From: an uncultured Alphaproteobacteria bacterium
GTDB taxonomy: Bacteria; Pseudomonadota; Alphaproteobacteria; RF32; CAG-239
Direction of reading: 5' to 3'
Assembly: GCA_944392275.1 (NCBI GenBank)
Contig: CALXWA010000004.1
Location: forward strand, 20,562-84,561
Length of the DNA: 64,000 nucleotides
Under the pieces are notes generated by a model. The model had not been told where the DNA came from, did no database searches, and saw nothing but the letters and a program-made list of their open reading frames with translations. Of the stretch, positions 7,156 to 60,892 are shown one piece after another. How positions within the stretch are numbered: the stretch's first letter is position 1; each line of letters opens with the position of its first letter. The position numbers and the translations under genes are program-made.

Positions 7156-8820
7156 CTACACCCGAGAATAAGAACGACCGGAGTACGGAACCTCTCTTGT
7201 ACTTTTTTTCTTTTGTGGAGCAAGCTTTTCCTGAAGTTTTTTGATTTTTGCCAAAGGCTTAAATCGATCTCCCATTCCTTTAACTAAATCAGAACTTAAA
7301 GACAAAAAATTAGAAGTTTTCAACAGATATTTTGTAGGATGGCGTTCTTGACGGTCCCGAAAAGAATCTAAAACAAAATTAGCACTCTCACCTTTGTGCT
7401 CTTCCGCGTGAATATCTACCCCGTCTTTGTTGTACATAATCATAATTCCAAAATTTTCCAACAAATTCTTATCAGCGGCAATTTCATCTCCGCTCGCAGC
7501 CGACAAACGATCCCAGTGGTGAATATCAATTTTATAGGGGATAGAAGAACATCCTGAAACCAATTTTGGATTAAAACTTTTATTTTCCTTCAAACTATGC
7601 GCCCATTGACAAAGAAAATCAGGATCCATTCCATTTTCAACAAAATCTTGTTGCAATTTATTGTATATTGTTGAAACTTTTCGCATACAGAGTTGATAGT
7701 CGACCTTACTTCCGCTATCATTCCAATCCTCAATTTCACTTTTAGAAGCAAAACGTTCGAGCCATATTTTTTGTTTTTCCCGTTCAGTCAGATTTTCAGC
7801 CCCACCCAACATCAAAATATCCCCCATCTTGGACGCCAGTTCCTGATAAGGACTATCACAAACATCGGGAACAACATCAACAAAAGCAACATCTTCCAAA
7901 TTTTTTGGATCGCGTTGCAAAATATAAGCTAAATCATAACTGTTAAATTGATAAGCCTTTTCCGGAGCAATTCCCATTTCCGAAAATTTTTGAGCAAAAA
8001 CCTTTGCCATTTTATGGAAATTAGAACTCCCGTTCACAGCGTTCCAAAGAGTACTAAGTGGTTCTCCTTTGTCATTTTGACCAAAGAAATCATAATCTTC
8101 CGGAGCATATTGTTTAACCTTTTTTGTCTTTTGCCAAGATCGAAATGCCTCAGATAACAAACGTTCATTCAATTGATGATTTTTATCAACAGGGGCATAA
8201 AACTTTCCGGCCGCCATACAGCGTAAAATCTTTGTAACACTAGCATCCGGCAAACTATCTTTTGCAATGATATCGGCAAAATATTTTTTATGAATAAAGT
8301 TAAATTGTGCTTCAGGAATTTCTCCTCGCTCCACCAATCGCAGAAGCTGTTCCATCGTCTCTAAACGAACATCATCATCTCTGAGCAAACTTTCAGGTGT
8401 AGCAGAAGCATAATTGCGGACATCTTCTTTTGCCATCAAACATACATATTGTCGACGAAGAGCCGCATGATATTTTCTTACTAATTCGGCAAAATTACCA
8501 TTTTGTAAAGCTTTGACATCATTCTTGTTTACAATTTTTTGCAAGTAAGATGTAACCCTTGCACGGTGTTTAAGACAACACAAATCCAAATTCGTCAAAA
8601 GCTCTCGCAAAAGATCTTTTTCATCAAGATAATTTCTTTGACTAAATTCTTTACGAGCATCCGGCCTTGTAAAAATTTTTCGGGTTATGCTCCTACTTTC
8701 AAAACTTTTTGCAGCAGAAGGACTTGTAGGTGCAGAAGAAATCGGATTTCCGGTTTCCCGATTAATTCTAATTCTTTGTCTTTTTCTTTTAATGGGAGCA
8801 TTTTCTTCAGACATATCCAC
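7156..8820 (-). CDS. hypothetical protein (554 aa, cytoplasmic, no recognisable domain)
   Basis: Long uninterrupted ORF with a GAGGTGG RBS before the ATG. Basic N-terminus (KRKRQRIRINRE); no signal peptide and no TM segment. Confidence 0.6.
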   Translation of the reverse strand: MDMSEENAPIKRKRQRIRINRETGNPISSAPTSPSAAKSFESRSITRKIFTRPDARKEFSQRNYLDEKDLLRELLTNLDLCCLKHRARVTSYLQKIVNKNDVKALQNGNFAELVRKYHAALRRQYVCLMAKEDVRNYASATPESLLRDDDVRLETMEQLLRLVERGEIPEAQFNFIHKKYFADIIAKDSLPDASVTKILRCMAAGKFYAPVDKNHQLNERLLSEAFRSWQKTKKVKQYAPEDYDFFGQNDKGEPLSTLWNAVNGSSNFHKMAKVFAQKFSEMGIAPEKAYQFNSYDLAYILQRDPKNLEDVAFVDVVPDVCDSPYQELASKMGDILMLGGAENLTEREKQKIWLERFASKSEIEDWNDSGSKVDYQLCMRKVSTIYNKLQQDFVENGMDPDFLCQWAHSLKENKSFNPKLVSGCSSIPYKIDIHHWDRLSAASGDEIAADKNLLENFGIMIMYNKDGVDIHAEEHKGESANFVLDSFRDRQERHPTKYLLKTSNFLSLSSDLVKGMGDRFKPLAKIKKLQEKLAPQKKKSTREVPYSGRSYSRV

Positions 8821-8913
8821 CTCGAAACAAAAACATTTTTTTCTTTATTTTATTGTCCTACAACAGGGCTTTGCTTGTCAAACCCTTTTTTTTAAAAAAA
8901 AGAAAAATTTTAA

Positions 8914-8953
8914 TTGACAAAATAGAGAAAATTTGCTATGTATATTTTGTCAA
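8914..8953. promoter_or_regulatory. perfect 11-bp inverted repeat TTGACAAAATA-N18-TATTTTGTCAA bracketing the ATG at 8938
   Basis: Read directly from the sequence. The left arm also contains a TTGACA -35 hexamer, 17 bp upstream of TATGTA. A third half-site CTTGTCAAA lies at about 8874. Candidate operator or mRNA hairpin. Confidence 0.4.
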
Positions 8954-9330
8954 AAAGAACTATTATGCAAGTATTTACAGATCTATTCTTCTTTGCCACA
9001 CATTTTAATATGGATCCCCAAAAAATCCAATGGTGTATCTTAGAAGACAAAAGCAATCCATGTCGATTTTTACTTGGAATAAAAAACAAAGACTCAAAAA
9101 TCGTCATCAGTGTTGAAGAAAGAAAGTTGCGTCGCCTCAAAAGAGGAAAACTTGTAGCACTTGATGCTATCCTCAAAAAAAACAAAAGAGGATACAAGCT
9201 ACAAAGTATCAAACCACTCGTTGCCACCGGAAAAAAAATAATCCTCTCTTTCAAAGAAAAGGATTTAGCCGATTTGTACTACGACCAATGGTACGACGCA
9301 AGCATGGAACCAAAAAAGCACCGCTCTTAA
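8938..9330 (+). CDS. hypothetical small basic protein
   Basis: 130-aa ORF divergent from the 554-aa orphan; Lys/Arg-rich. Start uncertain: the ATG at 8938 lies inside the palindrome, and alternatives are the ATGs at 8965 and 9010. Confidence 0.4.
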   Translation: MYILSKRTIMQVFTDLFFFATHFNMDPQKIQWCILEDKSNPCRFLLGIKNKDSKIVISVEERKLRRLKRGKLVALDAILKKNKRGYKLQSIKPLVATGKKIILSFKEKDLADLYYDQWYDASMEPKKHRS

Positions 9331-9352
9331 CCAAAAGAGCCGTGCTTTTTTT
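9316..9352 (+). terminator. Rho-independent terminator
   Basis: Imperfect hairpin AAGCACCGCTCTT / AAGAGCCGTGCTT followed by T7. It overlaps the stop codon of the 8938..9330 ORF. Confidence 0.5.
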
Positions 9353-9361
9353 ATTATACTT

Positions 9362-9435
9362 TGGCTGCTTCGCCTGGATTCGAACCAAGATTAACGGAGT
9401 CAGAGTCCGCTGTCCTACCATTAGACGACGAAGCA
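9362..9435 (-). tRNA. tRNA-Gln (anticodon CTG)
   Basis: 74-nt cloverleaf on the minus strand: TGCTTCG acceptor with a U1-A72 pair, anticodon loop CTCTGAC, T-loop TTCGAAT, and 3' GCCA. Confidence 0.85.
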
Positions 9436-9572
9436 ATCTCAAAAACATTGTTTTGTATATACCAACAAAAGATAAAATGCAAACACTTTTTTAGAATAAT
9501 TATACAGACCTTTTTTTAATTTTTTTGTCAAAGTACTTGGAAAATTAAAAAAAATCTGTTACACTGCAAATC

Positions 9573-9902
9573 ATGAGAAGTTTTGGATTAATAATAATAC
9601 TGTTATCTCTTTGCTCATGTGCTTCATATTACTACAAAGGATATGACGAAAATTACTACGCCAGTAATTTTCCGGGTTACCAACACAAACGATACTATTA
9701 CCGAACCTACAAGCCCCAACCGGTCCAAAGTTATCCTATTCCCCAAACGCCCATCAGCGTTCGACCTTTAACAACACAAGATTTTTATATGTTGGATAAT
9801 CATCCGGAAGACTATTTTAATACACAAATGTGGGAAGCATCTTCCGGGATTGGCAGTTATGCCATTCACAATTTTTTTGAAAATATATTTGCCAGATTTT
9901 AA
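9573..9902 (+). CDS. Tyr-rich small lipoprotein, hypothetical
   Basis: Signal peptide with lipobox LSLCSC; mature part rich in Y, P and Q; 109 aa. Confidence 0.5.
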   Translation: MRSFGLIIILLSLCSCASYYYKGYDENYYASNFPGYQHKRYYYRTYKPQPVQSYPIPQTPISVRPLTTQDFYMLDNHPEDYFNTQMWEASSGIGSYAIHNFFENIFARF

Positions 9903-12696: not shown

Positions 12697-13560
12697 TCAT
12701 TTATTTCTGTTTAAACGCTCCCAACGTTCTTGTTTTTTGCGTTCACGTTCTTCGGCTCTTTGTTTTGCCAATTCGGAAAAGCGAGATTTTCGATTATTTC
12801 TTTCTTCTAAAAGCTTAGCCTTTTTTTCTTCGCGTTTTTTCATACGTTCCCGAGCAAGTTTTTGAAAACGAGAAAGATTTTCTTCTTTCCGTTTTAACTT
12901 TTCCTGCTTTTTCTCTTCTCTTTCCCGTGCTCGTTCATAAGCTTTTTTCCGAAATGATGTTGTCGCTTGAGAACGTTCACGTTTAATCATTTCTTGCTTA
13001 AGTTGAGAGCGTTCTTCCTTAAGAGTTTTAGGCTTGTTTTTTTTGCTTTGTGAAGTGTTAGAAGCCCCCGCCTTCTTAGCACCTTCCTCTTGAGAAGGTT
13101 GACTATTGATTGTCTGCGGTTGTTTTTCCTCTACACTGGGCTGAAGAGTAGCATTTTCCTCTGGCTGAGGCTTAGGAGTAGAATTTTCACCTTCCACATC
13201 AAGAGAGTCTTTCTCTTCATCAGAAGGATTTACGCCCTCTTTTTTTTCATTTTCATTTTGAGGAGAAACATCGGCTAAGTTTTCCGATAAATTATTTTCC
13301 TCTCCTGATACCGGAGCATTTTTCTCAAGAATCTCTGCAGAACCCTCTTGTGGATCCGAATTTTCCTCTTGTTGCAAATTTTCCTGTTGTAATTTTTCTT
13401 CTTGAAGAGCTTCTTGTTTTTCTCTTTTTTCACGGGCTTGCCTTTGCCACATATTTTCCCCGGGAACCCAAGTCGGCTCCACGGCATAAACATCCAATTG
13501 CTTCGCATCAGCGTTAGCAACAATCGCAAACAACGTCAAAAAAGACCAAAAAAACTTCAT
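12697..13560 (-). CDS. secreted low-complexity E/K/Q-rich protein (coiled-coil-like), hypothetical
   Basis: Signal peptide (MKFFWSFLTLFAIVANADA). Acidic Q/E/S/P-rich middle, and a C-terminal array of ER/KK heptad-like repeats. The ORF-track start is a GTG at 13566; the first ATG is at 13560. Confidence 0.5.
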   Translation of the reverse strand: MKFFWSFLTLFAIVANADAKQLDVYAVEPTWVPGENMWQRQAREKREKQEALQEEKLQQENLQQEENSDPQEGSAEILEKNAPVSGEENNLSENLADVSPQNENEKKEGVNPSDEEKDSLDVEGENSTPKPQPEENATLQPSVEEKQPQTINSQPSQEEGAKKAGASNTSQSKKNKPKTLKEERSQLKQEMIKRERSQATTSFRKKAYERAREREEKKQEKLKRKEENLSRFQKLARERMKKREEKKAKLLEERNNRKSRFSELAKQRAEERERKKQERWERLNRNK

Positions 13561-13696
13561 AAACACCTCATTTCAAATATAATCATAAATTCATAAAAAC
13601 AAATGTAAAGACCTCAAACAAAATATACATAGAAAAAAACACAAATTGACATCTTACCCAAAACGTATAAAAATACGCAAAAAAAAGGAGAAACAA

Positions 13697-53048: not shown

Positions 53049-54305
53049 TTAATCTACTCCGCCGATTGGCGTTCCCACCAGTTTGAAATCATTTTTAAAA
53101 AACTTGTCATGCAAGGTTTTCCGATGTTTTCGGACCTCCATCACGTCTGCAAGCGGAGCCTTATACATTTCAATAATTGCCTGCATGGTTGAATAGCGAA
53201 CCTGTTGCATTTTTGGACTAAGTTTCTTGATTTCATCATCATCCGAGCCGCTTTTATACCTTTTGATCGCCAAAACCATATACCGCGGAATTTGTGATAA
53301 ACGATAAGCTTTCAAGGTTTTGTCACAAGTATACGCCCATTCATTAAGGGTAAAACCCTCTTTGGCAACCACTTTTGCCAACGACAACTCTTCACCCAAA
53401 ATAGAGGCTTTTTGCACCAACCTCTGACACGGATTAACCAGATCTTTCATTCCCGGTGCCGCAACAAAATTTTCCGCCGCCGCATCATAGGCCAACCACA
53501 TGGTTGTCAGTTGATAAACTTTCATTTGATTTCCGTTTTGTTTGGCCCATTCTTCAACCCCGTCTAATGTATTAATAAAAGCCTCTACATCTTTTGCCGT
53601 CAACAATGAGTTTTTTGTCGGGTTAAGGGTTCGCAAATCACTCTTCGTCAATGTTTTGGCTAAATTTCCGTTTTCCATATATTTTTCGGGAGGAACCAAT
53701 TTACGGAGATTTTGGTAAAACTCACCATCATAAACAACCTTGGCAAAAGCCTTTCTCTTAACGGGAAACTCAAAATTTTCCTTAGGCTCTTCCCATACTT
53801 CCGGACGCAATAAATAATAAAGCCCCGGAGACAAAAATTCCAAATCTTCAATATCTTTCAAAGCATCGGCCACCCGAGACGGAAAACGATTTTTAGTTTC
53901 CTTAATCCCCGGCATATTCAAAATTTTTTCGGACATATTCGGTACCGAAAACAATGCCGGTCCGATATATTCATACATCTCTTTCGGTAACGAAGCCAAA
54001 ACTTCTAAAAAAGCATCTTCATCCGGCCATTTCAGACGTTTTTCATTCATTCCGTATGTAATAATCGTCTGCCTAAATTCCGGATTAAAATCACCTTGCA
54101 AATCAAAGACACTTTTGTATTGCGGATTATACAATACCTGCTGTTTATAAAAAAAACTTTTTAATTCTTCTAAAGTCGGAAGTTGGTCTTGCTCCAAATC
54201 AATATCATAAACTTTTTCATAATCGGAAATTCCGGCAGCCAGAGAACTTGCCGCAACAAAAAAGCATCCTCCGATTAAAAAAATCAAAAACAGCTTCAAC
54301 TTCAT
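53049..54305 (-). CDS. secreted hypothetical protein (418 aa)
   Basis: Signal peptide (MKLKLFLIFLIGGCFFVAASSLAAG); no recognisable domain. Confidence 0.55.
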   Translation of the reverse strand: MKLKLFLIFLIGGCFFVAASSLAAGISDYEKVYDIDLEQDQLPTLEELKSFFYKQQVLYNPQYKSVFDLQGDFNPEFRQTIITYGMNEKRLKWPDEDAFLEVLASLPKEMYEYIGPALFSVPNMSEKILNMPGIKETKNRFPSRVADALKDIEDLEFLSPGLYYLLRPEVWEEPKENFEFPVKRKAFAKVVYDGEFYQNLRKLVPPEKYMENGNLAKTLTKSDLRTLNPTKNSLLTAKDVEAFINTLDGVEEWAKQNGNQMKVYQLTTMWLAYDAAAENFVAAPGMKDLVNPCQRLVQKASILGEELSLAKVVAKEGFTLNEWAYTCDKTLKAYRLSQIPRYMVLAIKRYKSGSDDDEIKKLSPKMQQVRYSTMQAIIEMYKAPLADVMEVRKHRKTLHDKFFKNDFKLVGTPIGGVD

Positions 54306-55736
54306 TTAGTTTCGAACCACCTTAACCGTAAACGTTAATGTTTGCTCTCCCTTTGCGGGAATATCAATTGTCCAGATTCGAGTTTGAGCTGTTTTATTTT
54401 TACCGACAATATTTTCTGTCACAATCTCCGAACTGCCATTAAAAGCTTGCTCAAAATCAAGTGTGATTTTTTCTTCTTTTTGGTTAAAGAATTGCACCGC
54501 AACATCGGCCTCAAAAGATTTATCCGACAATTTTTGAACACGAACAATCTTCCCCTTAGCATAGACATCAAAAACTTTTCCGATGCTCAGTTCAATCTCT
54601 TCCCCCGTTGTAATTTGCTCCATTTGATCCGACCCCACAAAAGCCAAATTCTTTGCCTCTCGAGCATCATAAAAACGGACCACTCCTTCGGGCAACGGAA
54701 CACCTAAATGACTCTCCTTATCATTTTTGAAGTGGTAGAAAACTTCCGGATGAAGAGCCTCAAAATCATTTTGATAAGAATTAAATGAAATCATCAATGG
54801 CGATTTTAATTGATATTTTGTCTCATAAGCTACATCTTTGGCTTCCATCAACAAAATCTGTTTTGATTGTTGGTTAATAAGATCGGTTTGGAACGGAACG
54901 GAATATTGATAATACTCCGCCATACTCTCAGCCGAAATATTTTTTGCCATAACCGCACGATCTGCCGCAAAGCTTGCATTTAACAAAGCACCGCGAGCCA
55001 TAGGAGCTACCGGAACCGCATTTTGCACATTATTAACTTGTCCGGATACTAAAGAAATTTTTGCATTTTTATAATCCGTCCCTGAGTTATTGGTAAGGGT
55101 TGCCCACGCCTGCCAGTTTAACTTATCTTTCCCAACAAGCTCGGCAACATAATTGGTTTGCCACGAAAGTCCCGTAGTCAGATAATTGAGTACCAAATTT
55201 TTAGCCCCGGCGGATGCAGCATCTACGGAAACGGAAAAGGTCGGTTTAATCTTTAAGTTTTCCGGAAGGTCATTAAAAACGATTCGTCCGGGAAAATCAC
55301 TTTCAATTCCATAAGAAAATTTCAGCAACGGATTTCCATATCCGGCACTGACAACCGTTGCTTTATCAAAATAATTTTCACCACTGTCCGGATTAAAAAT
55401 TACGGTTTTTACCTCTTTTCCGACAAAATGTTGCAAAAGATTATTCTTATTTAAAAGGTCATAAGCATAATTTTGCTCCAAAACTTGAATTCCCTCACCA
55501 ACCAAAAAAGCGGTTTCGGGTTTCATTTGTTCAGAAACGCCTTCAAAAGCAATAACATTTTTCCCCTTTGCTAAATCCGCCTCCCGAGTATCGGAAACCA
55601 ACGCCAAATTTTGCGGATAAATATGGAGCTCGACACCTTTTACATCTAAAGCATCCAGTTTTAAAAGACTCGCATAGAGCGGAGAAATTCCAACTCCCAT
55701 TCCAAGACAAACCCAAACAGCTAAATATTTTTTCAT
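54306..55736 (-). CDS. secreted hypothetical protein (476 aa), possibly DUF4139/DUF4140-like
   Basis: Signal peptide. Beta-rich composition and a LNYLTTGLSWQTNYVAEL segment reminiscent of the DUF4139 family; this resemblance is unverified. Its stop abuts the start of the downstream secreted gene. Confidence 0.5.
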   Translation of the reverse strand: MKKYLAVWVCLGMGVGISPLYASLLKLDALDVKGVELHIYPQNLALVSDTREADLAKGKNVIAFEGVSEQMKPETAFLVGEGIQVLEQNYAYDLLNKNNLLQHFVGKEVKTVIFNPDSGENYFDKATVVSAGYGNPLLKFSYGIESDFPGRIVFNDLPENLKIKPTFSVSVDAASAGAKNLVLNYLTTGLSWQTNYVAELVGKDKLNWQAWATLTNNSGTDYKNAKISLVSGQVNNVQNAVPVAPMARGALLNASFAADRAVMAKNISAESMAEYYQYSVPFQTDLINQQSKQILLMEAKDVAYETKYQLKSPLMISFNSYQNDFEALHPEVFYHFKNDKESHLGVPLPEGVVRFYDAREAKNLAFVGSDQMEQITTGEEIELSIGKVFDVYAKGKIVRVQKLSDKSFEADVAVQFFNQKEEKITLDFEQAFNGSSEIVTENIVGKNKTAQTRIWTIDIPAKGEQTLTFTVKVVRN

Positions 55737-56480: not shown

Positions 56481-57287
56481 ATGTCTGTAAGTATGTTGAT
56501 TGCGTTTATCGCAGGCATTGCGGTAGTTATCGGTTCAATTGTCAGTGCAACCGACCGTCCGCAAATGTTTATTGATATTCCGAGTATCATTATTGTTTTT
56601 GGCGGAACATTTGTAACCCTTTTTATATCATATGAACTTAAAACGGCTCTTGGAGCCTTGAAATTGATTGGTCAGTCCTTCAAAAGACATGATGATTCGA
56701 TTAAATCCCTAAAAAATGAAGTTGGTCGCCTTATTCGTTGGGGGTATCTTGTCCAAAAGAACGGACTTCAAGGCCTTGAAAATGAAGTCAATGATGATTT
56801 ACGCAAAGAAAATTCCTTTTTGGCTTATGGTGCCGATTTGGTTATAACCGGCTATACCGGAAATGAAATACGCCAAATTTTACTCGATATGCTGGAAGCA
56901 CAAGCCGAACGCTTGAAACGACCGGTAGATGCCTTAAAAAAGATGGGGGGCGATGCTCCGGCTTTTGGTATGCTCGGGACCTTAATTGGGTTGGTTATTA
57001 TGCTTGGCAGCATGGGTGGAGATCCGGCGGCGATTGGTCCAAGTATGGCTGTTGCGTTAATTACAACATTTTATGGTATTATTCTTGCCCGTATCGTTAT
57101 GATTCCGATTGGTACAAAAATGGCCGCTCGAATGGATGTCACTTTATTTAAGTACAACCTCGAACTGGAAGGTCTGGTTCTTTTAGCCGAAAGAAAAAGT
57201 CCTCGCTACATTCAAGATAAAATCAACTCATTTGTCGATGACAATGAACAATTCTTGATTGATCGCGACATGGACAGAGGCTCTTAG
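56481..57287 (+). CDS. motA: flagellar motor stator protein MotA/PomA
   Basis: 4-TM MotA/TolQ/ExbB family. Conserved PAFGMLGTLIGL in TM3 and a cytoplasmic loop; 268 aa. Followed by motB. Confidence 0.85.
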   Translation: MSVSMLIAFIAGIAVVIGSIVSATDRPQMFIDIPSIIIVFGGTFVTLFISYELKTALGALKLIGQSFKRHDDSIKSLKNEVGRLIRWGYLVQKNGLQGLENEVNDDLRKENSFLAYGADLVITGYTGNEIRQILLDMLEAQAERLKRPVDALKKMGGDAPAFGMLGTLIGLVIMLGSMGGDPAAIGPSMAVALITTFYGIILARIVMIPIGTKMAARMDVTLFKYNLELEGLVLLAERKSPRYIQDKINSFVDDNEQFLIDRDMDRGS

Positions 57288-57302
57288 TTCGGAGAGATAT
57301 AA

Positions 57303-57959
57303 ATGAAAAAAAAGTCTGAAGATAAAATTGATGAAGATTGGATGTCGACCTATGGTGACATGGTCACATTACTTCTGTGCTTTTTTGTCATGATGGTTTC
57401 CGTTTCCAAAACAGATGTTGCTAAATTTGAGATGATTCAAGCCGGCCTAAACGAAAGCATAGGCAAACAAAGCGTCACTCGCCCGATTGAAATGATGTTG
57501 ATGGAACTTGCTGAAGATGTTCAGTCTTTAAGTGCAGAAGACAGCATTGCCTTAGGGAGCGATACGCAAGGAGTTGTAATTGAACTTGGCGATAATCTAA
57601 TTTTTGATCATGGCTCTGCTGAACTCAAACCAGAGGCTATTCCCGTGCTAAAAAGAATTGCGGCCACACTCCAATCCGAAAGATACAGCTCTTTCAATTT
57701 TAGTATTGAGGGACACACCAGTGATGAGCCGTTTTCCAGTGCTTTATACCCTTCCAATTGGGAATTATCTTCCGCACGAGCCGCCGCTGTTGCTCGCTTT
57801 TTGGAAAAAAGAGGGATTCAAAGAATGCGTCTAAAAATAACCGGAATGTATGATATTGCACCTAAATATCCCAATTTAGACCCCTATGGACAACCCATCC
57901 CGCAAAATCGAGAAAAGAACAGACGTGTGGTTATCCATGTTGAACCATCCTTTTTATAA
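57303..57959 (+). CDS. motB: flagellar motor protein MotB (OmpA-like peptidoglycan-binding domain)
   Basis: N-terminal TM with WMSTYGDMVTLLL plug/TM motif, and a C-terminal OmpA-like domain (NWELSSARAAAVARFL). Confidence 0.85.
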   Translation: MKKKSEDKIDEDWMSTYGDMVTLLLCFFVMMVSVSKTDVAKFEMIQAGLNESIGKQSVTRPIEMMLMELAEDVQSLSAEDSIALGSDTQGVVIELGDNLIFDHGSAELKPEAIPVLKRIAATLQSERYSSFNFSIEGHTSDEPFSSALYPSNWELSSARAAAVARFLEKRGIQRMRLKITGMYDIAPKYPNLDPYGQPIPQNREKNRRVVIHVEPSFL

Positions 57960-57984
57960 AAAAAGCCCTTCAGGGCTTTTTTTT
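57958..57984 (+). terminator. Rho-independent terminator of motAB
   Basis: Hairpin AAGCCCT-TCA-GGGCTT followed by T9. Confidence 0.8.
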
Positions 57985-57988
57985 TATT

Positions 57989-57996
57989 TAATAATT
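57989..57996. repeat. left copy of the 8-bp target-site duplication AATAATTA
   Basis: Identical octamer immediately outside both terminal inverted repeats; the other copy is at 60076-60083. Confidence 0.75.
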
Positions 57997-58023
57997 AGGC
58001 TCTATTAAACAATTTTGTTGAAA
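57997..58023. repeat. left terminal inverted repeat of the IS1595-family element (GGCTCTATTAAACAATTTTGTTGAAAT)
   Basis: 27-bp perfect reverse complement of 60049-60075. Confidence 0.85.
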
Positions 58024-58108
58024 TATACTCTAAATAAAATCCTTGCTAAATTATTTGATAAGAATTTACAATGTAATTCTGATTAATAATTTATGAAAAG
58101 GATTTTTA

Positions 58109-58333
58109 TTGCCAAATAATACTTTTGAAGATTTCAAAAAATTTTTAGATAATTTTCCTGAAAAATTTGAATCTTTTAATCTGGATATTAACCTTAATGA
58201 ATGTACAATTACTGTTACAATTCATTATTCCAAAACATTTACTGCTTCATTAGGAAAATTTATATGTACTTCTGATGATTTATTTCAAACATATAATGAA
58301 TTGGCTATTTTTCTTAAAGAGAGAGTTAGATAA
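58109..58333 (+). CDS. passenger ORF, 74-aa hypothetical protein (TTG start)
   Basis: Inside the IS element. AAGGA RBS 7 nt before the TTG. No similarity recognised. Confidence 0.35.
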   Translation: MPNNTFEDFKKFLDNFPEKFESFNLDINLNECTITVTIHYSKTFTASLGKFICTSDDLFQTYNELAIFLKERVR

Positions 58334-58579
58334 TAATCTTTTTATGATATTTGATTCTTTTATTATATCAGTATTGTTATTGATAGTTTGATGAATTTCC
58401 AATTTTGGAATAAATTTTACAATATTTAATTTTCTATTTTTCATAACAAAAATCTCCTAATCTTATACAAGTATTTATAAGGAGATTTTTGTTATTTGTG
58501 AATCAAATAATTTTTTCTTTGACTTTTCATTATTTAAGTTGATAATTTATCATATTGAATATCATTGAAAGGTCTAAAA

Positions 58580-59041
58580 ATGTCATATGTAAAAGGAACT
58601 CTATCAAAAGATGAGGAAATTAAAGAAGTTGTGAAACTGCATTGGTTCAATTATATTTTTACAGGTATTATAGCTTTTGTTGCTCTACTTTTTGTAATTT
58701 CTTATTTTGCAAGTGCTGAATTACAAAAAGACCCAGGAACAAAATGGATTGTTATACTTTTTGTTCTATGGGCATTATATGATTTCCTAAAATTATATAC
58801 AACCGAAATGGTTATAACCAATAAGAGAGTTATATGCAGAAAAGGCATTATTAGCGTAAAAACAGAAGAATTGAAAAATGCAAAAGTTGAGTCTATTGAG
58901 ATTAAACAATCAATATTAGGAAGAATTTTTGGGTATGCTACTATTTGGTTTTCAGGAACAGGAACATCAAAAGTAAAATTTGAAGCTGTTGATGACCCTT
59001 GGGCAATAAAAAGCCGAGTGGAGTCAATCATTGGTGATTAA
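58580..59041 (+). CDS. passenger gene: bacterial PH-domain (bPH_2, YdbS/YdbT-like) membrane protein
   Basis: Two TM helices, then a PH-like module (VITNKRVICRKGIISVKTEELKNAKVESIEIKQSILGRIFGYATIWF). The ORF-track TTG at 58565 was trimmed to the ATG at 58580, which has a GAAAGG RBS. Confidence 0.6.
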   Translation: MSYVKGTLSKDEEIKEVVKLHWFNYIFTGIIAFVALLFVISYFASAELQKDPGTKWIVILFVLWALYDFLKLYTTEMVITNKRVICRKGIISVKTEELKNAKVESIEIKQSILGRIFGYATIWFSGTGTSKVKFEAVDDPWAIKSRVESIIGD

Positions 59042-59077
59042 TTTTTTGAAGTGGTGTATTTTTACACCACTTTTATT

Positions 59078-59986
59078 TTATCCCAATAAACAATCTTTTA
59101 TCAACAAATTATTATCGGCACCTGATTTAATCCAACTAAACCAGTTCAAATAATTAGTTAAATATCGGGTGCTGATTCCGTTAAAATGCCTTACAAAATC
59201 TTTCAAACCTTTGTGATAATTGCTTACATTGTTAATATGATATTCTCCGTTTTTATGCTTACCTCGTGCTATTCTCTTATGTTGTAAATTGTGATTTTTA
59301 GCAAATTGAATATATGATTTATGGGAATCTGTTACCAAAATTGAATCTTCTTCAATCTTATTGCCTAAAACATTTTCTGTTTGTTGGGTTGTTAATCGCC
59401 CTCTACCATAAACATCAGAAATAATATTTTTGTTTCCATCCATAGCAACCATTATACCGATTTGGTAATGAGAAATACCTCTTAATTTTGCTTTACCACC
59501 TCTTTTTCTGCCTTTTATACCCTCAATTTTCTTACCTTTATGAGATTCAAGCAAAAATGTTTCATCTGCTTCTACAACACCTGAAACAGTTGTATTTTGA
59601 AACTGTTTTTTGATAGCATTTAAAACCTTATGTCTCCAACGAAAAGCAGTTAAAACAGATATACCACATTTAGGAGCAATTTTAGCAAGTGATAAACCTG
59701 TCATCATCAATTCAATGTATTTGAACCAAGTGTCATAATCTTTTTTAGTGCTGAAAAATATTGTTTTCGTATATTCAGTAAAGGTCTTACCACAATCTTT
59801 ACATCTATATCTTTGGATACCACTACTGCTACCAAATTTCTGAATATGTTTTTTTCCACAAATGGGACAAACAACACCATTTTCAAATCTTTTTACAGAA
59901 GTTTTAGATTTTTGAACTTTGCTGAAAAGATGTTTCAGTTCTTCCTCTGATAACTTTTTTAATTGCTCTAATAAATCTTGATTCAT
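59078..59986 (-). CDS. IS1595-family (ISXO2-like) transposase
   Basis: N-terminal zinc ribbon (CPICGKK...CKDCGK) and a DDE domain; 302 aa. Flanked by the terminal inverted repeats. Confidence 0.85.
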   Translation of the reverse strand: MNQDLLEQLKKLSEEELKHLFSKVQKSKTSVKRFENGVVCPICGKKHIQKFGSSSGIQRYRCKDCGKTFTEYTKTIFFSTKKDYDTWFKYIELMMTGLSLAKIAPKCGISVLTAFRWRHKVLNAIKKQFQNTTVSGVVEADETFLLESHKGKKIEGIKGRKRGGKAKLRGISHYQIGIMVAMDGNKNIISDVYGRGRLTTQQTENVLGNKIEEDSILVTDSHKSYIQFAKNHNLQHKRIARGKHKNGEYHINNVSNYHKGLKDFVRHFNGISTRYLTNYLNWFSWIKSGADNNLLIKDCLLG

Positions 59987-60048
59987 TTTACCTATCCCTT
60001 TGTTTTATATAAGTATTATAAGGGATTTTATGAAAATTGTCAAGCCAT

Positions 60049-60075
60049 ATTTCAACAAAATTGTTTAATAGAGCC
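60049..60075. repeat. right terminal inverted repeat of the IS1595-family element (ATTTCAACAAAATTGTTTAATAGAGCC)
   Basis: 27-bp perfect reverse complement of 57997-58023. Confidence 0.85.
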
Positions 60076-60083
60076 AATAATTA
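60076..60083. repeat. right copy of the 8-bp target-site duplication AATAATTA
   Basis: It overlaps the TAA stop (60081-60083) of the phosphatase gene, so the duplication regenerates the stop codon. Confidence 0.75.
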
Positions 60084-60668
60084 AAATAAATCACCGTCAA
60101 CGGCAAATTTTTCTCCGTCAAACATAAGGCAAAAAGCCGCACAATTAGGAATTTTAGCAAACGGATAATGAAAATAATTTAATAAAGAAGCCATCGTTCC
60201 GCCATGGATGGCAACACCGACAACATCAAAAGGATTATCCTTTCTTTGTGCTAAATGATGCAAAACGCCCAGAACTCGATCCAAAGCCTCTTGCTTACTC
60301 TCTCCTCCCGGAAAACGAATATCCCAACATTTCGGATTGCTCCAATTGTTAAGGACATCGGGAAACTCTTGTCGAACATTCTCTAAAGCTTCACCTTCGG
60401 CTTTACCATAAAAACATTCACGTAAATTATATTCAACCTCTACAGAAATATTGAGTTCGCGGGCAACAATTTCTGCCGTTTGGCGAGCTCTTAGCAAGGG
60501 AGAAGAATAAATAATTTGCAAATTTTTTCTTCTTAATTTTTGAGCCAAATCAAAAGCTTGCTCTCTTCCCAAAGGATTAAGAGGATAATCCATACCGGAT
60601 CCTTGCATTCTACCCAAAGAATTCAATTCTGTTTCGCCATGACGAAAAATATAAAACGCTTTAACCAT
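60081..60668 (-). CDS. histidine phosphatase (phosphoglycerate mutase) family protein
   Basis: RHGETELN catalytic motif. Trimmed to the ATG at 60668, because the longer ORF would overlap tRNA-Gly. Confidence 0.75.
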   Translation of the reverse strand: MVKAFYIFRHGETELNSLGRMQGSGMDYPLNPLGREQAFDLAQKLRRKNLQIIYSSPLLRARQTAEIVARELNISVEVEYNLRECFYGKAEGEALENVRQEFPDVLNNWSNPKCWDIRFPGGESKQEALDRVLGVLHHLAQRKDNPFDVVGVAIHGGTMASLLNYFHYPFAKIPNCAAFCLMFDGEKFAVDGDLF

Positions 60669-60682
60669 TGAAAAACTTTCAC

Positions 60683-60708
60683 AAAAAAATCCGGAACACG
60701 GTCCGGAT
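60683..60708 (-). terminator. Rho-independent terminator following tRNA-Gly
   Basis: Hairpin ATCCGG-N8-CCGGAT, followed on the minus strand by T7. Confidence 0.5.
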
Positions 60709-60713
60709 AAAAT

Positions 60714-60788
60714 TGGAGCGGGCGGCGAGATTCGAACTCGTGACTTCAACCTTGGGAAGGTCGCACTCTACCGCTGAGTTACGCCCGC
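60714..60788 (-). tRNA. tRNA-Gly (anticodon CCC)
   Basis: 75 nt on the minus strand: GCGGGCG acceptor, anticodon loop TTCCCAA, T-loop TTCGAAT, and 3' TCCA. Confidence 0.85.
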
Positions 60789-60892
60789 AAAAAAGATGAA
60801 ACTATGTATAAAACAAAACTTTTTTTTCTGCAAGTTCTTTTTTAATAATACTCCCCAAACATCTTTTGGCAAACATCCTGGCCTAAAACACC

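Follow-up and report, generated by a model that had tools for sequence, protein, structure and literature searches.

A divergent pair of genes, here called LARGE and SMALL, is encoded on a 64-kb stretch of chromosome from an uncultured gut alphaproteobacterium (contig CALXWA010000004.1, positions 20,562 to 84,561), referred to below as the window. LARGE (7156..8814, minus strand) encodes a soluble protein of 552 aa and SMALL (8965..9330, plus strand) a beta-rich partner protein of 121 aa with an isoelectric point (pI) of 9.8. We tentatively favour the reading, as a serious possibility rather than a probability, that LARGE is a metal-dependent nuclease restrained by a dedicated SMALL, which would act as inhibitor and/or autoregulator, with both proteins made from conserved back-to-back sigma-70 promoters. 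If this is true, the pair stands for two families that lack annotation, one of nucleases and one of their partners, both confined to a poorly known group of uncultured Alphaproteobacteria of the mammalian gut. The motif would be of the colicin type, but the surrounding architecture, the fold of the partner and the gene arrangement would all be new. The pair would then be a fresh example of cells taming a dangerous nuclease, possibly by a new inhibitor fold, and two "hypothetical proteins" of these metagenome-assembled genomes (MAGs) become a testable prediction.

The HNH-like motif and the architecture of LARGE

Near its C-terminus (residues 428-480, nucleotides 7381..7539, minus strand) LARGE carries an HNH-like (His-Me finger) motif that reads PYKIDIHH(434,435)W...N(456)FGIMIMY...DIH(471)AEEH(475)KGES. 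Residue numbers of LARGE refer throughout to the 554-aa open reading frame (ORF) counted from GTG 8820. Among 22 sequences of the LARGE family, which share 17-50% identity and fall into three subfamilies, H434, H435, H471 and H475 are invariant and N456 is at least 90% conserved, so that the four His and N456 are among the few columns conserved across the whole set. The other invariant residues are M3 (the start Met), R200, D296, P324 and W406. The AlphaFold2 prediction, which is a model and not a solved structure, places a strand at residues 430-435, a second strand at 457-462 and a helix at 470-474, with a predicted local distance difference test score (pLDDT) of about 75-91. The pattern therefore sits on a predicted beta-beta-alpha element: the HH pair ends strand 1, the Asn stands before strand 2 and H-x3-H-x-G lies on the helix. 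The H-N-H DNases of colicins E7 and E9 (ColE7, ColE9) are arranged in this way; in them, metal binding falls to the first His and to both His of the helix, and the second His serves as general base.

A targeted profile-profile comparison with hhalign set the C-terminal alignment of LARGE against seven DNase sequences, namely ColE9 and six colicin, pyocin, klebicin and Bacillus DNases taken from plasmid records. The ColE9 sequence is identical to PDB 1bxi_B. The comparison gave P=1.8e-4 and a probability of 49%, and HH, N and HxxxH came out in register: H434/H435 align with ColE9 H102/H103, and N456, H471 and H475 with N118, H127 and H131. The alignment spans only about 36-54 columns. It scores 28.1, whereas 200 column shuffles reach 10.0±2.0 (maximum 19.4) and the reversed alignment 16.0. 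Untargeted searches were weak and only some of them agree with the HNH direction. The 'kIeIHHK' strand of pyocin S2 matched the C-terminal profile weakly among PDB sequences (E=1.6), and PF01844 HNH gave a weak match in one family member (E=0.1). Foldseek returned weak 34-column matches to ENPP2 (autotaxin) and ENPP3 (E ~7.5), the matched position not being given; both proteins contain a nuclease-like domain.

The initial annotation had stated that LARGE has no detectable motif. This holds for Pfam, NCBIfam, PADLOC and PHROGs, whose scans of LARGE, SMALL and distant relatives gave nothing usable, with no match to PADLOC defence models below E=0.04 for six family members; it fails for the targeted comparison. 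The remote-homology and structure check proposed there had the same divided outcome: curated and structural searches found no significant match, and hhalign gave the colicin-type HNH register. PDB sequences were also searched with profiles built from the entire LARGE family, from its C-terminal domain and from the SMALL family, and none gave a significant match. A candidate assignment of the helix motif to the inverzincin (HxxEH) proteases was rejected, the Glu before H475 being K, Q, M or I in several members.

On this evidence we consider the assignment of the C-terminal element to the His-Me finger fairly probable; the catalytic motif of LARGE probably belongs to the HNH/His-Me finger superfamily. 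By analogy with the ColE7/E9 DNases, LARGE would most likely be a metal-dependent endonuclease of this kind, in which H434, H471 and H475 hold a divalent metal, H435 serves as the general base and N456 braces the beta-hairpin. LARGE is not a member of the colicin/pyocin bacteriocin family, since only the motif aligns, no Im-type gene is present, translocation and receptor domains are absent and the gene is not plasmid-borne. The pair would rather combine an HNH nuclease of new architecture with a partner that is itself new, and it matched no defence-system or phage family.

The remainder of LARGE has no recognisable fold. The AlphaFold2 model (mean pLDDT 78) shows disordered tails at residues 1-62 and 515-554 and a confident, mostly alpha-helical body at residues 63-413 (7582..8634, minus strand), which includes a conserved LRCMAAGKFYAP motif (8191-8226, minus strand). 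Outside the HNH-like motif we found no significant structural match, and no secretion, receptor-binding or translocation domain was recognised. There is no hydrophobic (membrane) segment in LARGE or SMALL; the maximum Kyte-Doolittle mean over 19 residues is 0.74, in agreement with the earlier statement that LARGE lacks a signal peptide. The charge of the C-terminal tail varies among family members.

The N-terminal tail (8635..8820, minus strand; pLDDT <50) was correctly described as highly basic, with a pI of 11.2 over the first 60 residues. It contains the motif K-R-K-R-Q-R-I-R-I (8764-8790, minus strand), for which relatives have [KR]KKRPRI; the window copy reads IKRKRQRIRI, with Q where the close subfamily usually has P. 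Across 14 sequences R14 and R16 are invariant and K12, P15 and I17 at least 90% conserved. In the 22-sequence alignment the distant subfamilies keep only P-x-x-R-x-R-[IVMF], located after an acidic helix. The classical monopartite nuclear localisation signal (NLS) has the consensus K-(K/R)-x-(K/R), and K11-R12-K13-R14 matches this pattern in a disordered segment, although a pattern match is not a function. Because the distant subfamilies keep so little of the motif, its conserved core appears to be a short binding motif that need not be an NLS. Its ligand could be nucleic acid, SMALL or another partner, and substrate or partner binding by LARGE would fall to the new helical domain together with this tail.

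A strictly coupled, divergently transcribed pair

The extents of both genes differ from those first given. The longest ORF of LARGE (7156..8820, minus strand) has 554 aa, as initially reported, but its GTG 8820 falls within a GAGG Shine-Dalgarno sequence, 5 nt 5' of ATG 8814, and the database protein P0001, which is 100% identical to LARGE, has 552 aa. The true start is therefore most likely ATG 8814, with a product of 552 aa. Likewise, the longest ORF of SMALL (8938..9330, plus strand; 130 aa) is present and divergent as described, but the start of every SMALL homologue corresponds to ATG 8965, and ATG 8938 falls within a predicted -10 box. The product of SMALL is thus probably 121 aa, and the region between the genes is 150 nt in length rather than the 117 nt first reported, while its description as AT-rich and divergent stands.

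The proteins are not orphans, as had been assumed. A word-indexed search recovered 14 relatives of LARGE with 33-50% identity, and an exhaustive search with a profile hidden Markov model (HMM) against 1.84 billion cluster representatives recovered 25. For SMALL, a profile search found 16 proteins and nothing else; an earlier search had missed the homologues since the protein is short. The families thus count 25 and 16 members, respectively, among the billions of proteins searched. None of the relatives of LARGE is named or assigned a Pfam domain in any source. When one genome per GTDB species was scanned, 12 loci came up, all of them in MAGs labelled uncultured Alphaproteobacteria or proteobacterium, the record titles of which include mouse (MGBC) and Hadza human gut catalogues. 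All 12 carry an adjacent, divergent SMALL homologue upstream of LARGE, with SMALL identities of 36-50%. The divergent pair is also present in four distant loci (L018, L019, L026 and L027), in which LARGE is 17-27% identical to the window copy; L026 and L027 come from human gut metagenome records. The literature on RF32 and the gut Alphaproteobacteria lineage yielded no genomic or lifestyle information. In some of the loci other genes stand out: L018 encodes an ankyrin-repeat protein (632-1399) two genes from the pair, and in L003 a pertactin-type autotransporter lies near it. These genes are hints of an interaction with eukaryotic cells in the lineage.

Both genes are under purifying selection, somewhat weaker than that on their housekeeping neighbours: in five syntenic locus pairs the ratio of nonsynonymous to synonymous substitution rates (dN/dS) is 0.10-0.21 for LARGE and 0.11-0.24 for SMALL, compared with 0.02-0.06 for the neighbours. 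At larger distances the pair diverges much faster than the surrounding genes. Between the window and L007, identity is 85% for AdhE and 64% for the Nudix protein, but 43% for LARGE and 50% for SMALL. Between L018 and its relatives it is 77% for the response regulator, 59% for the FSH1 hydrolase and 59% for BOF, as against 24-28% for LARGE and 25-35% for SMALL. That both genes evolve so fast while their surroundings are conserved hints at a part in conflict, be it with phages, competitors or a host. The human-gut contigs L026 and L027 (3986-4400) present a special case. LARGE and a MlaE-like neighbour are 97% identical between them, SMALL only 73%; dN is 0.135 for SMALL versus 0.010, and dS is raised too. 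Immediately past SMALL the two contigs cease to be collinear and encode different Cys-rich secreted proteins. This points to an allelic replacement of SMALL by recombination, with a boundary just past the gene. Taken as a whole, the pair is a vertically inherited, fast-evolving two-gene module of an uncultured gut Alphaproteobacteria lineage.

SMALL was rightly called Lys/Arg-rich (26 K+R). Its AlphaFold2 model (mean pLDDT 84) consists of an N-terminal helix, seven strands and a C-terminal helix. The conserved residues fall into two clusters, an N-terminal 'FF-x-x-HFN ... WCI' segment and a C-terminal 'L-x-x-LY-x-D-x-WY' helix. The pI is 8.4-10 in 17 of 18 proteins, while the SMALL of L018 is acidic (pI 4.9). 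A search of solved structures, Im proteins included, gave no significant match.

The AT-rich spacer (8815..8964) contains two predicted sigma-70-like promoters placed back to back. That of LARGE has its -35 box TTGACA at 8881-8876 and its -10 box GACAAT at 8857-8852 (minus strand); that of SMALL has TTGACA at 8914-8919 and TATGTA at 8937-8942 (plus strand). The spacer measures 141-168 nt in the 12 genomes compared. An alignment of ten spacers shows both -35 hexamers (TTGACA) to be invariant, about 35 nt apart and facing outward, and the -10 elements to be conserved as a TAT type for SMALL and as cACAAT for LARGE. A perfect 9-nt inverted repeat, TTGACAAAA at 8914-8922 and TTTTGTCAA at 8945-8953, brackets the -10 box of SMALL, and an 8-mer of this repeat also forms the -35 box of LARGE. 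The downstream arm of the repeat is kept in about 10 of 12 loci and is missing from L018. The architecture of the spacer fits a separate and probably strong expression of LARGE and SMALL, and it would allow for autoregulation.

In the proposed mechanism SMALL would be made from its own conserved, consensus-like promoter, which faces away from LARGE, and would most likely bind LARGE and restrain a potentially self-damaging nuclease as an inhibitor or immunity-like protein. In the subfamily with basic pI, SMALL may in addition autoregulate through the TTGACAAA repeats. A protein-protein partner is favoured over a generic DNA binder because the two genes co-occur strictly through deep divergence and their families are of matched size, and because the charge of SMALL is not conserved and SMALL diverges faster than LARGE in close strain pairs. 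Dedicated inhibitors, separately and constitutively expressed, have been described for cytotoxic nucleases in the systems NucA/NuiA, colicin/Im and barnase/barstar (PMC13522737). On the place where LARGE would act, the indications diverge: conservation throughout the lineage, the lack of export signals and the fact that mobile elements do not carry the pair lean towards an intracellular role, such as defence or DNA processing, and the fast evolution leans towards a role in conflict.

Alternative readings

Several points weigh against a nuclease with a dedicated inhibitor. Toxin/immunity systems are seldom conserved throughout a lineage at partly syntenic positions, as this pair is. SMALL matches no known nuclease inhibitor in the structure search, and most of its members are basic, in contrast to the usual acidity of known nuclease inhibitors. 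A transcription regulator would account at least equally well for the divergent transcription and for the inverted repeat at the promoter of SMALL itself. On the side of LARGE, no curated HNH model is significant, and the HNH call rests on one targeted profile-profile test, the residue pattern and predicted secondary structure. The four His could instead form a purely structural zinc site, and the best PDB sequence match to the C-terminal profile is the 'H-x3-H-x-GE' linker of a C2H2 zinc finger (E=0.87).

The main rival makes SMALL a basic DNA-binding regulator with an SH3-like barrel, which would act on the TTGACAAA repeats of the spacer and control LARGE as well as itself. LARGE would then be an intracellular DNA-processing enzyme, for instance in repair, recombination or restriction-like defence, and would need no inhibitor. 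The divergent arrangement across a spacer of conserved length is in line with such a role, as are the inverted repeat around the -10 box of SMALL with its 8-mer in the -35 box of LARGE, the basic pI of nearly all SMALL proteins, and a conservation throughout the lineage like that of a resident cellular function. However, the two invariant hexamers are nothing more than sigma-70 -35 boxes of consensus sequence, L003, L008, L017 and L018 lack the third repeat, and the SMALL of L018 is acidic. Moreover, library, structure and PDB-profile searches found no known DNA-binding domain in SMALL, and a regulator is normally not strictly coupled to its target through such deep divergence. We regard this rival as unlikely but deserving of attention, and the roles of regulator and inhibitor are not mutually exclusive.

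A further reading, which we judge improbable, sees in LARGE an exported weapon, i.e. a nuclease toxin directed against bacteria in the manner of a bacteriocin or against eukaryotic cells, with SMALL as the immunity protein. A colicin-type HNH motif near the C-terminus of a protein of about 550 aa, whose disordered N-terminal tail bears a conserved motif, does recall the nuclease bacteriocins. Also in line with it are the rate at which LARGE evolves, far above that of its neighbours, the allelic replacement of SMALL seen in close strains, and the ankyrin-repeat and autotransporter genes that stand near the pair in some loci. Against this stand the lack of a signal peptide and of any recognisable secretion, receptor-binding or translocation domain, and the lack of a lysis gene and of an Im-type immunity gene downstream. 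No plasmid or phage was found to carry the genes, the pair shows lineage-wide conservation instead of variation among strains, and the charge of the C-terminal tail of LARGE is not conserved. In the eukaryotic version of this reading, the K-R-K-R/KRPR cluster is an NLS and LARGE a nucleomodulin or genotoxin. The tail motif fits the monopartite consensus, but the distant subfamilies keep only R-x-R-[IVMF] and no NLS-like cluster, and the window resembles the chromosome of a free-living Gram-negative bacterium (mdoGH, motAB, adhE, spoT). One specific form of it, in which LARGE is a new type of bacterial genotoxin or nucleomodulin and a gut alphaproteobacterium exports an HNH nuclease whose KRPR-type motif directs it to the nucleus of the host or of a gut protist, with SMALL as an immunity protein of unseen fold, appears very improbable.

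Equally improbable, in our estimate, is that LARGE is no nuclease at all. The four His would then be a structural zinc site in a scaffold or regulator-like protein, and the likeness to HNH would be convergent. The curated and structural searches, all negative or non-significant, agree with this, as does the zinc-finger linker as best PDB match. What speaks for catalysis is that the full colicin pattern and not merely a His pair is in register, that the hhalign score lies about 9 standard deviations above the shuffled controls, and that the residue matching the general-base His is invariant in 22 of 22 sequences. We keep to a nuclease with a dedicated partner as the tentatively favoured reading. 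The toxin/immunity-like pair suggested in the initial annotation also stays plausible to this extent, through the HNH motif and the strict coupling to a small partner, but its horizontal acquisition does not.

Chromosomal setting and comparison with known systems

SMALL ends in a bidirectional intrinsic terminator hairpin (9312..9351, both strands), with 17-nt arms that are 94% complementary. The hairpin overlaps the stop codon of SMALL and faces the 3' end of a convergent tRNA-Gln(CTG) (9362..9435, minus strand; ARAGORN and Rfam), which confirms the earlier description of a terminator abutting this tRNA gene. Because T-runs follow on both strands, it can terminate both SMALL and tRNA-Gln. The tRNA gene is a neighbour of the pair. 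An Rfam scan of the window gave nothing beyond four tRNAs. The other neighbours are glmS, a hexapeptide acetyltransferase gene, which lies downstream of LARGE, a lipoprotein gene and adhE, and the rest of the window is ordinary chromosome with mdoGH, uvrD, tig, pheST, era, spoT and motAB.

The position on the 3' side of tRNA-Gln had led to the proposal of a horizontally acquired island or phage remnant integrated at the tRNA gene, a reading that we hold to be highly improbable and largely refuted already. The low GC content at third codon positions (GC3) of LARGE, 0.28 against 0.35-0.45 for most neighbours, would agree with it, as would the inversion of the segment with LARGE, SMALL and tRNA-Gln relative to lipo109/adhE in comparison with L007 and L008. 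However, in the 64-kb window only the tRNA itself matches its 3' end with at most three mismatches, so that the direct repeat looked for is lacking. In the loci of the relatives an exact 19-mer of the 3' end likewise had no match, the acceptor stems being different from species to species. The pair has neither integrase nor phage genes beside it, PHROGs gave no match, and the tetranucleotide composition of the region is ordinary (z <= 1.4). Phage, plasmid and viral-contig collections hold no relatives of the pair. A mobile element or homing endonuclease was rejected as well, the pair being single-copy in the window, without flanking inverted repeats and without phage, plasmid or viral relatives. 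Furthermore, the segment is not strain-specific: the pair is adjacent and divergent in all 12 related species genomes found, with orthologous flanks and partly kept synteny, and recurs in the four distant loci. Conservation across the family is what the initial annotation itself had named as speaking against an island, and it thereby refutes the idea.

The order of a tRNA-Gln convergent with SMALL, followed by a divergent LARGE, recurs in L007, L008 and L015. The gap between the 3' end of tRNA-Gln and SMALL is 31 nt in the window, 395 nt in L007 (7150-7545), 1.2 kb in L015 (6294-7498) and 3.2 kb in L008 (4221-7471). The gap of L008 encodes a 481-aa unknown protein, an alpha/beta hydrolase and a HAD-like protein of 151 aa, and no integrase. 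The tRNA-Gln gene may be an insertion hot spot in the lineage. Since the extra DNA of the relatives sits between tRNA-Gln and the pair, the pair is a conserved flank and not cargo. Flanking genes differ between genomes and are partly shared; L018, for example, has BOF, response-regulator and histidine-kinase synteny in common with L009 and L015. A homologue of the small lipoprotein gene 9573-9902 follows LARGE in L007 and L008, whereas in the window this gene follows tRNA-Gln. Compared with these two loci (window 7156-9902 versus L007 7077-9859 and L008 4148-9897), the segment of LARGE, SMALL and tRNA-Gln has the opposite orientation with respect to the lipoprotein gene, adhE and the Nudix gene. 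We found no flanking inverted repeat that would account for the inversion.

Elsewhere in the window, positions 57000-60800 are of atypical composition (tetranucleotide z up to 5.4) and are a better candidate for recently acquired DNA than the pair. Here an IS1595-family transposase ORF (59078-59986, minus strand) adjoins tRNA-Gly (60714-60788). A His_Phos_1 ORF (60081-60749) overlaps the same tRNA by 36 nt, and because of this overlap its TTG start is probably placed too far upstream. The 289-aa product of 12697-13566 (minus strand) has a signal peptide and contains long low-complexity repeats rich in Glu, Lys and Gln; it has no Pfam match and is only partly conserved in L007. Two adjacent large ORFs lie at 53049-55736 (minus strand); one of 418 aa has no Pfam match, and the other, of 476 aa, has a below-threshold match to DUF4139 (28.3 bits versus a cut-off of 31.8 bits).

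Among known systems, the pair resembles tRNA-linked genomic islands in its location on the 3' side of a tRNA gene. It differs from them in having no attachment-site repeat, integrase or compositional signal, and in being conserved instead of patchy. With type II toxin-antitoxin systems it shares the two-gene unit, in which the small protein may neutralise its partner and autoregulate via an inverted repeat at the promoter. Unlike these, the genes are divergent, have separate promoters and are not co-transcribed; the putative toxin is about 550 aa in size, and no known toxin-antitoxin or defence model is matched.

A parallel may also be drawn to NucA of Anabaena, a beta-beta-alpha-metal nuclease whose inhibitor NuiA has about 135 aa and is constitutively expressed on its own (PMC13522737). 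Separate expression of the inhibitor matches the logic proposed for SMALL with its own strong promoter. NucA, a member of the Serratia-type (DRGH) family, is secreted by means of a signal peptide, which LARGE lacks, and the pair shows no similarity in sequence or fold to NucA or NuiA.

LARGE differs from the colicin DNases in lacking a recognisable DNase core of about 100 residues with the Im-binding exosite, only the short motif-bearing segment being alignable, and Pfam finds no receptor-binding or translocation domains in it. SMALL is beta-rich, mostly basic, and encoded upstream and divergently, whereas Im proteins are encoded downstream and in the same orientation. The pair is also chromosomal and lineage-conserved, without plasmid relatives. 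On the other hand, LARGE has the four-His-plus-Asn pattern of the DNases of colicins E2, E7 and E9, pyocin S2 and klebicin B, in the same order and on a predicted strand-strand-helix element. As in the colicin-type DNases, this motif stands near the C-terminus of a protein of about 550 aa with a disordered N-terminus, and as in colicin/Im the large gene is coupled to a small, dedicated partner gene.

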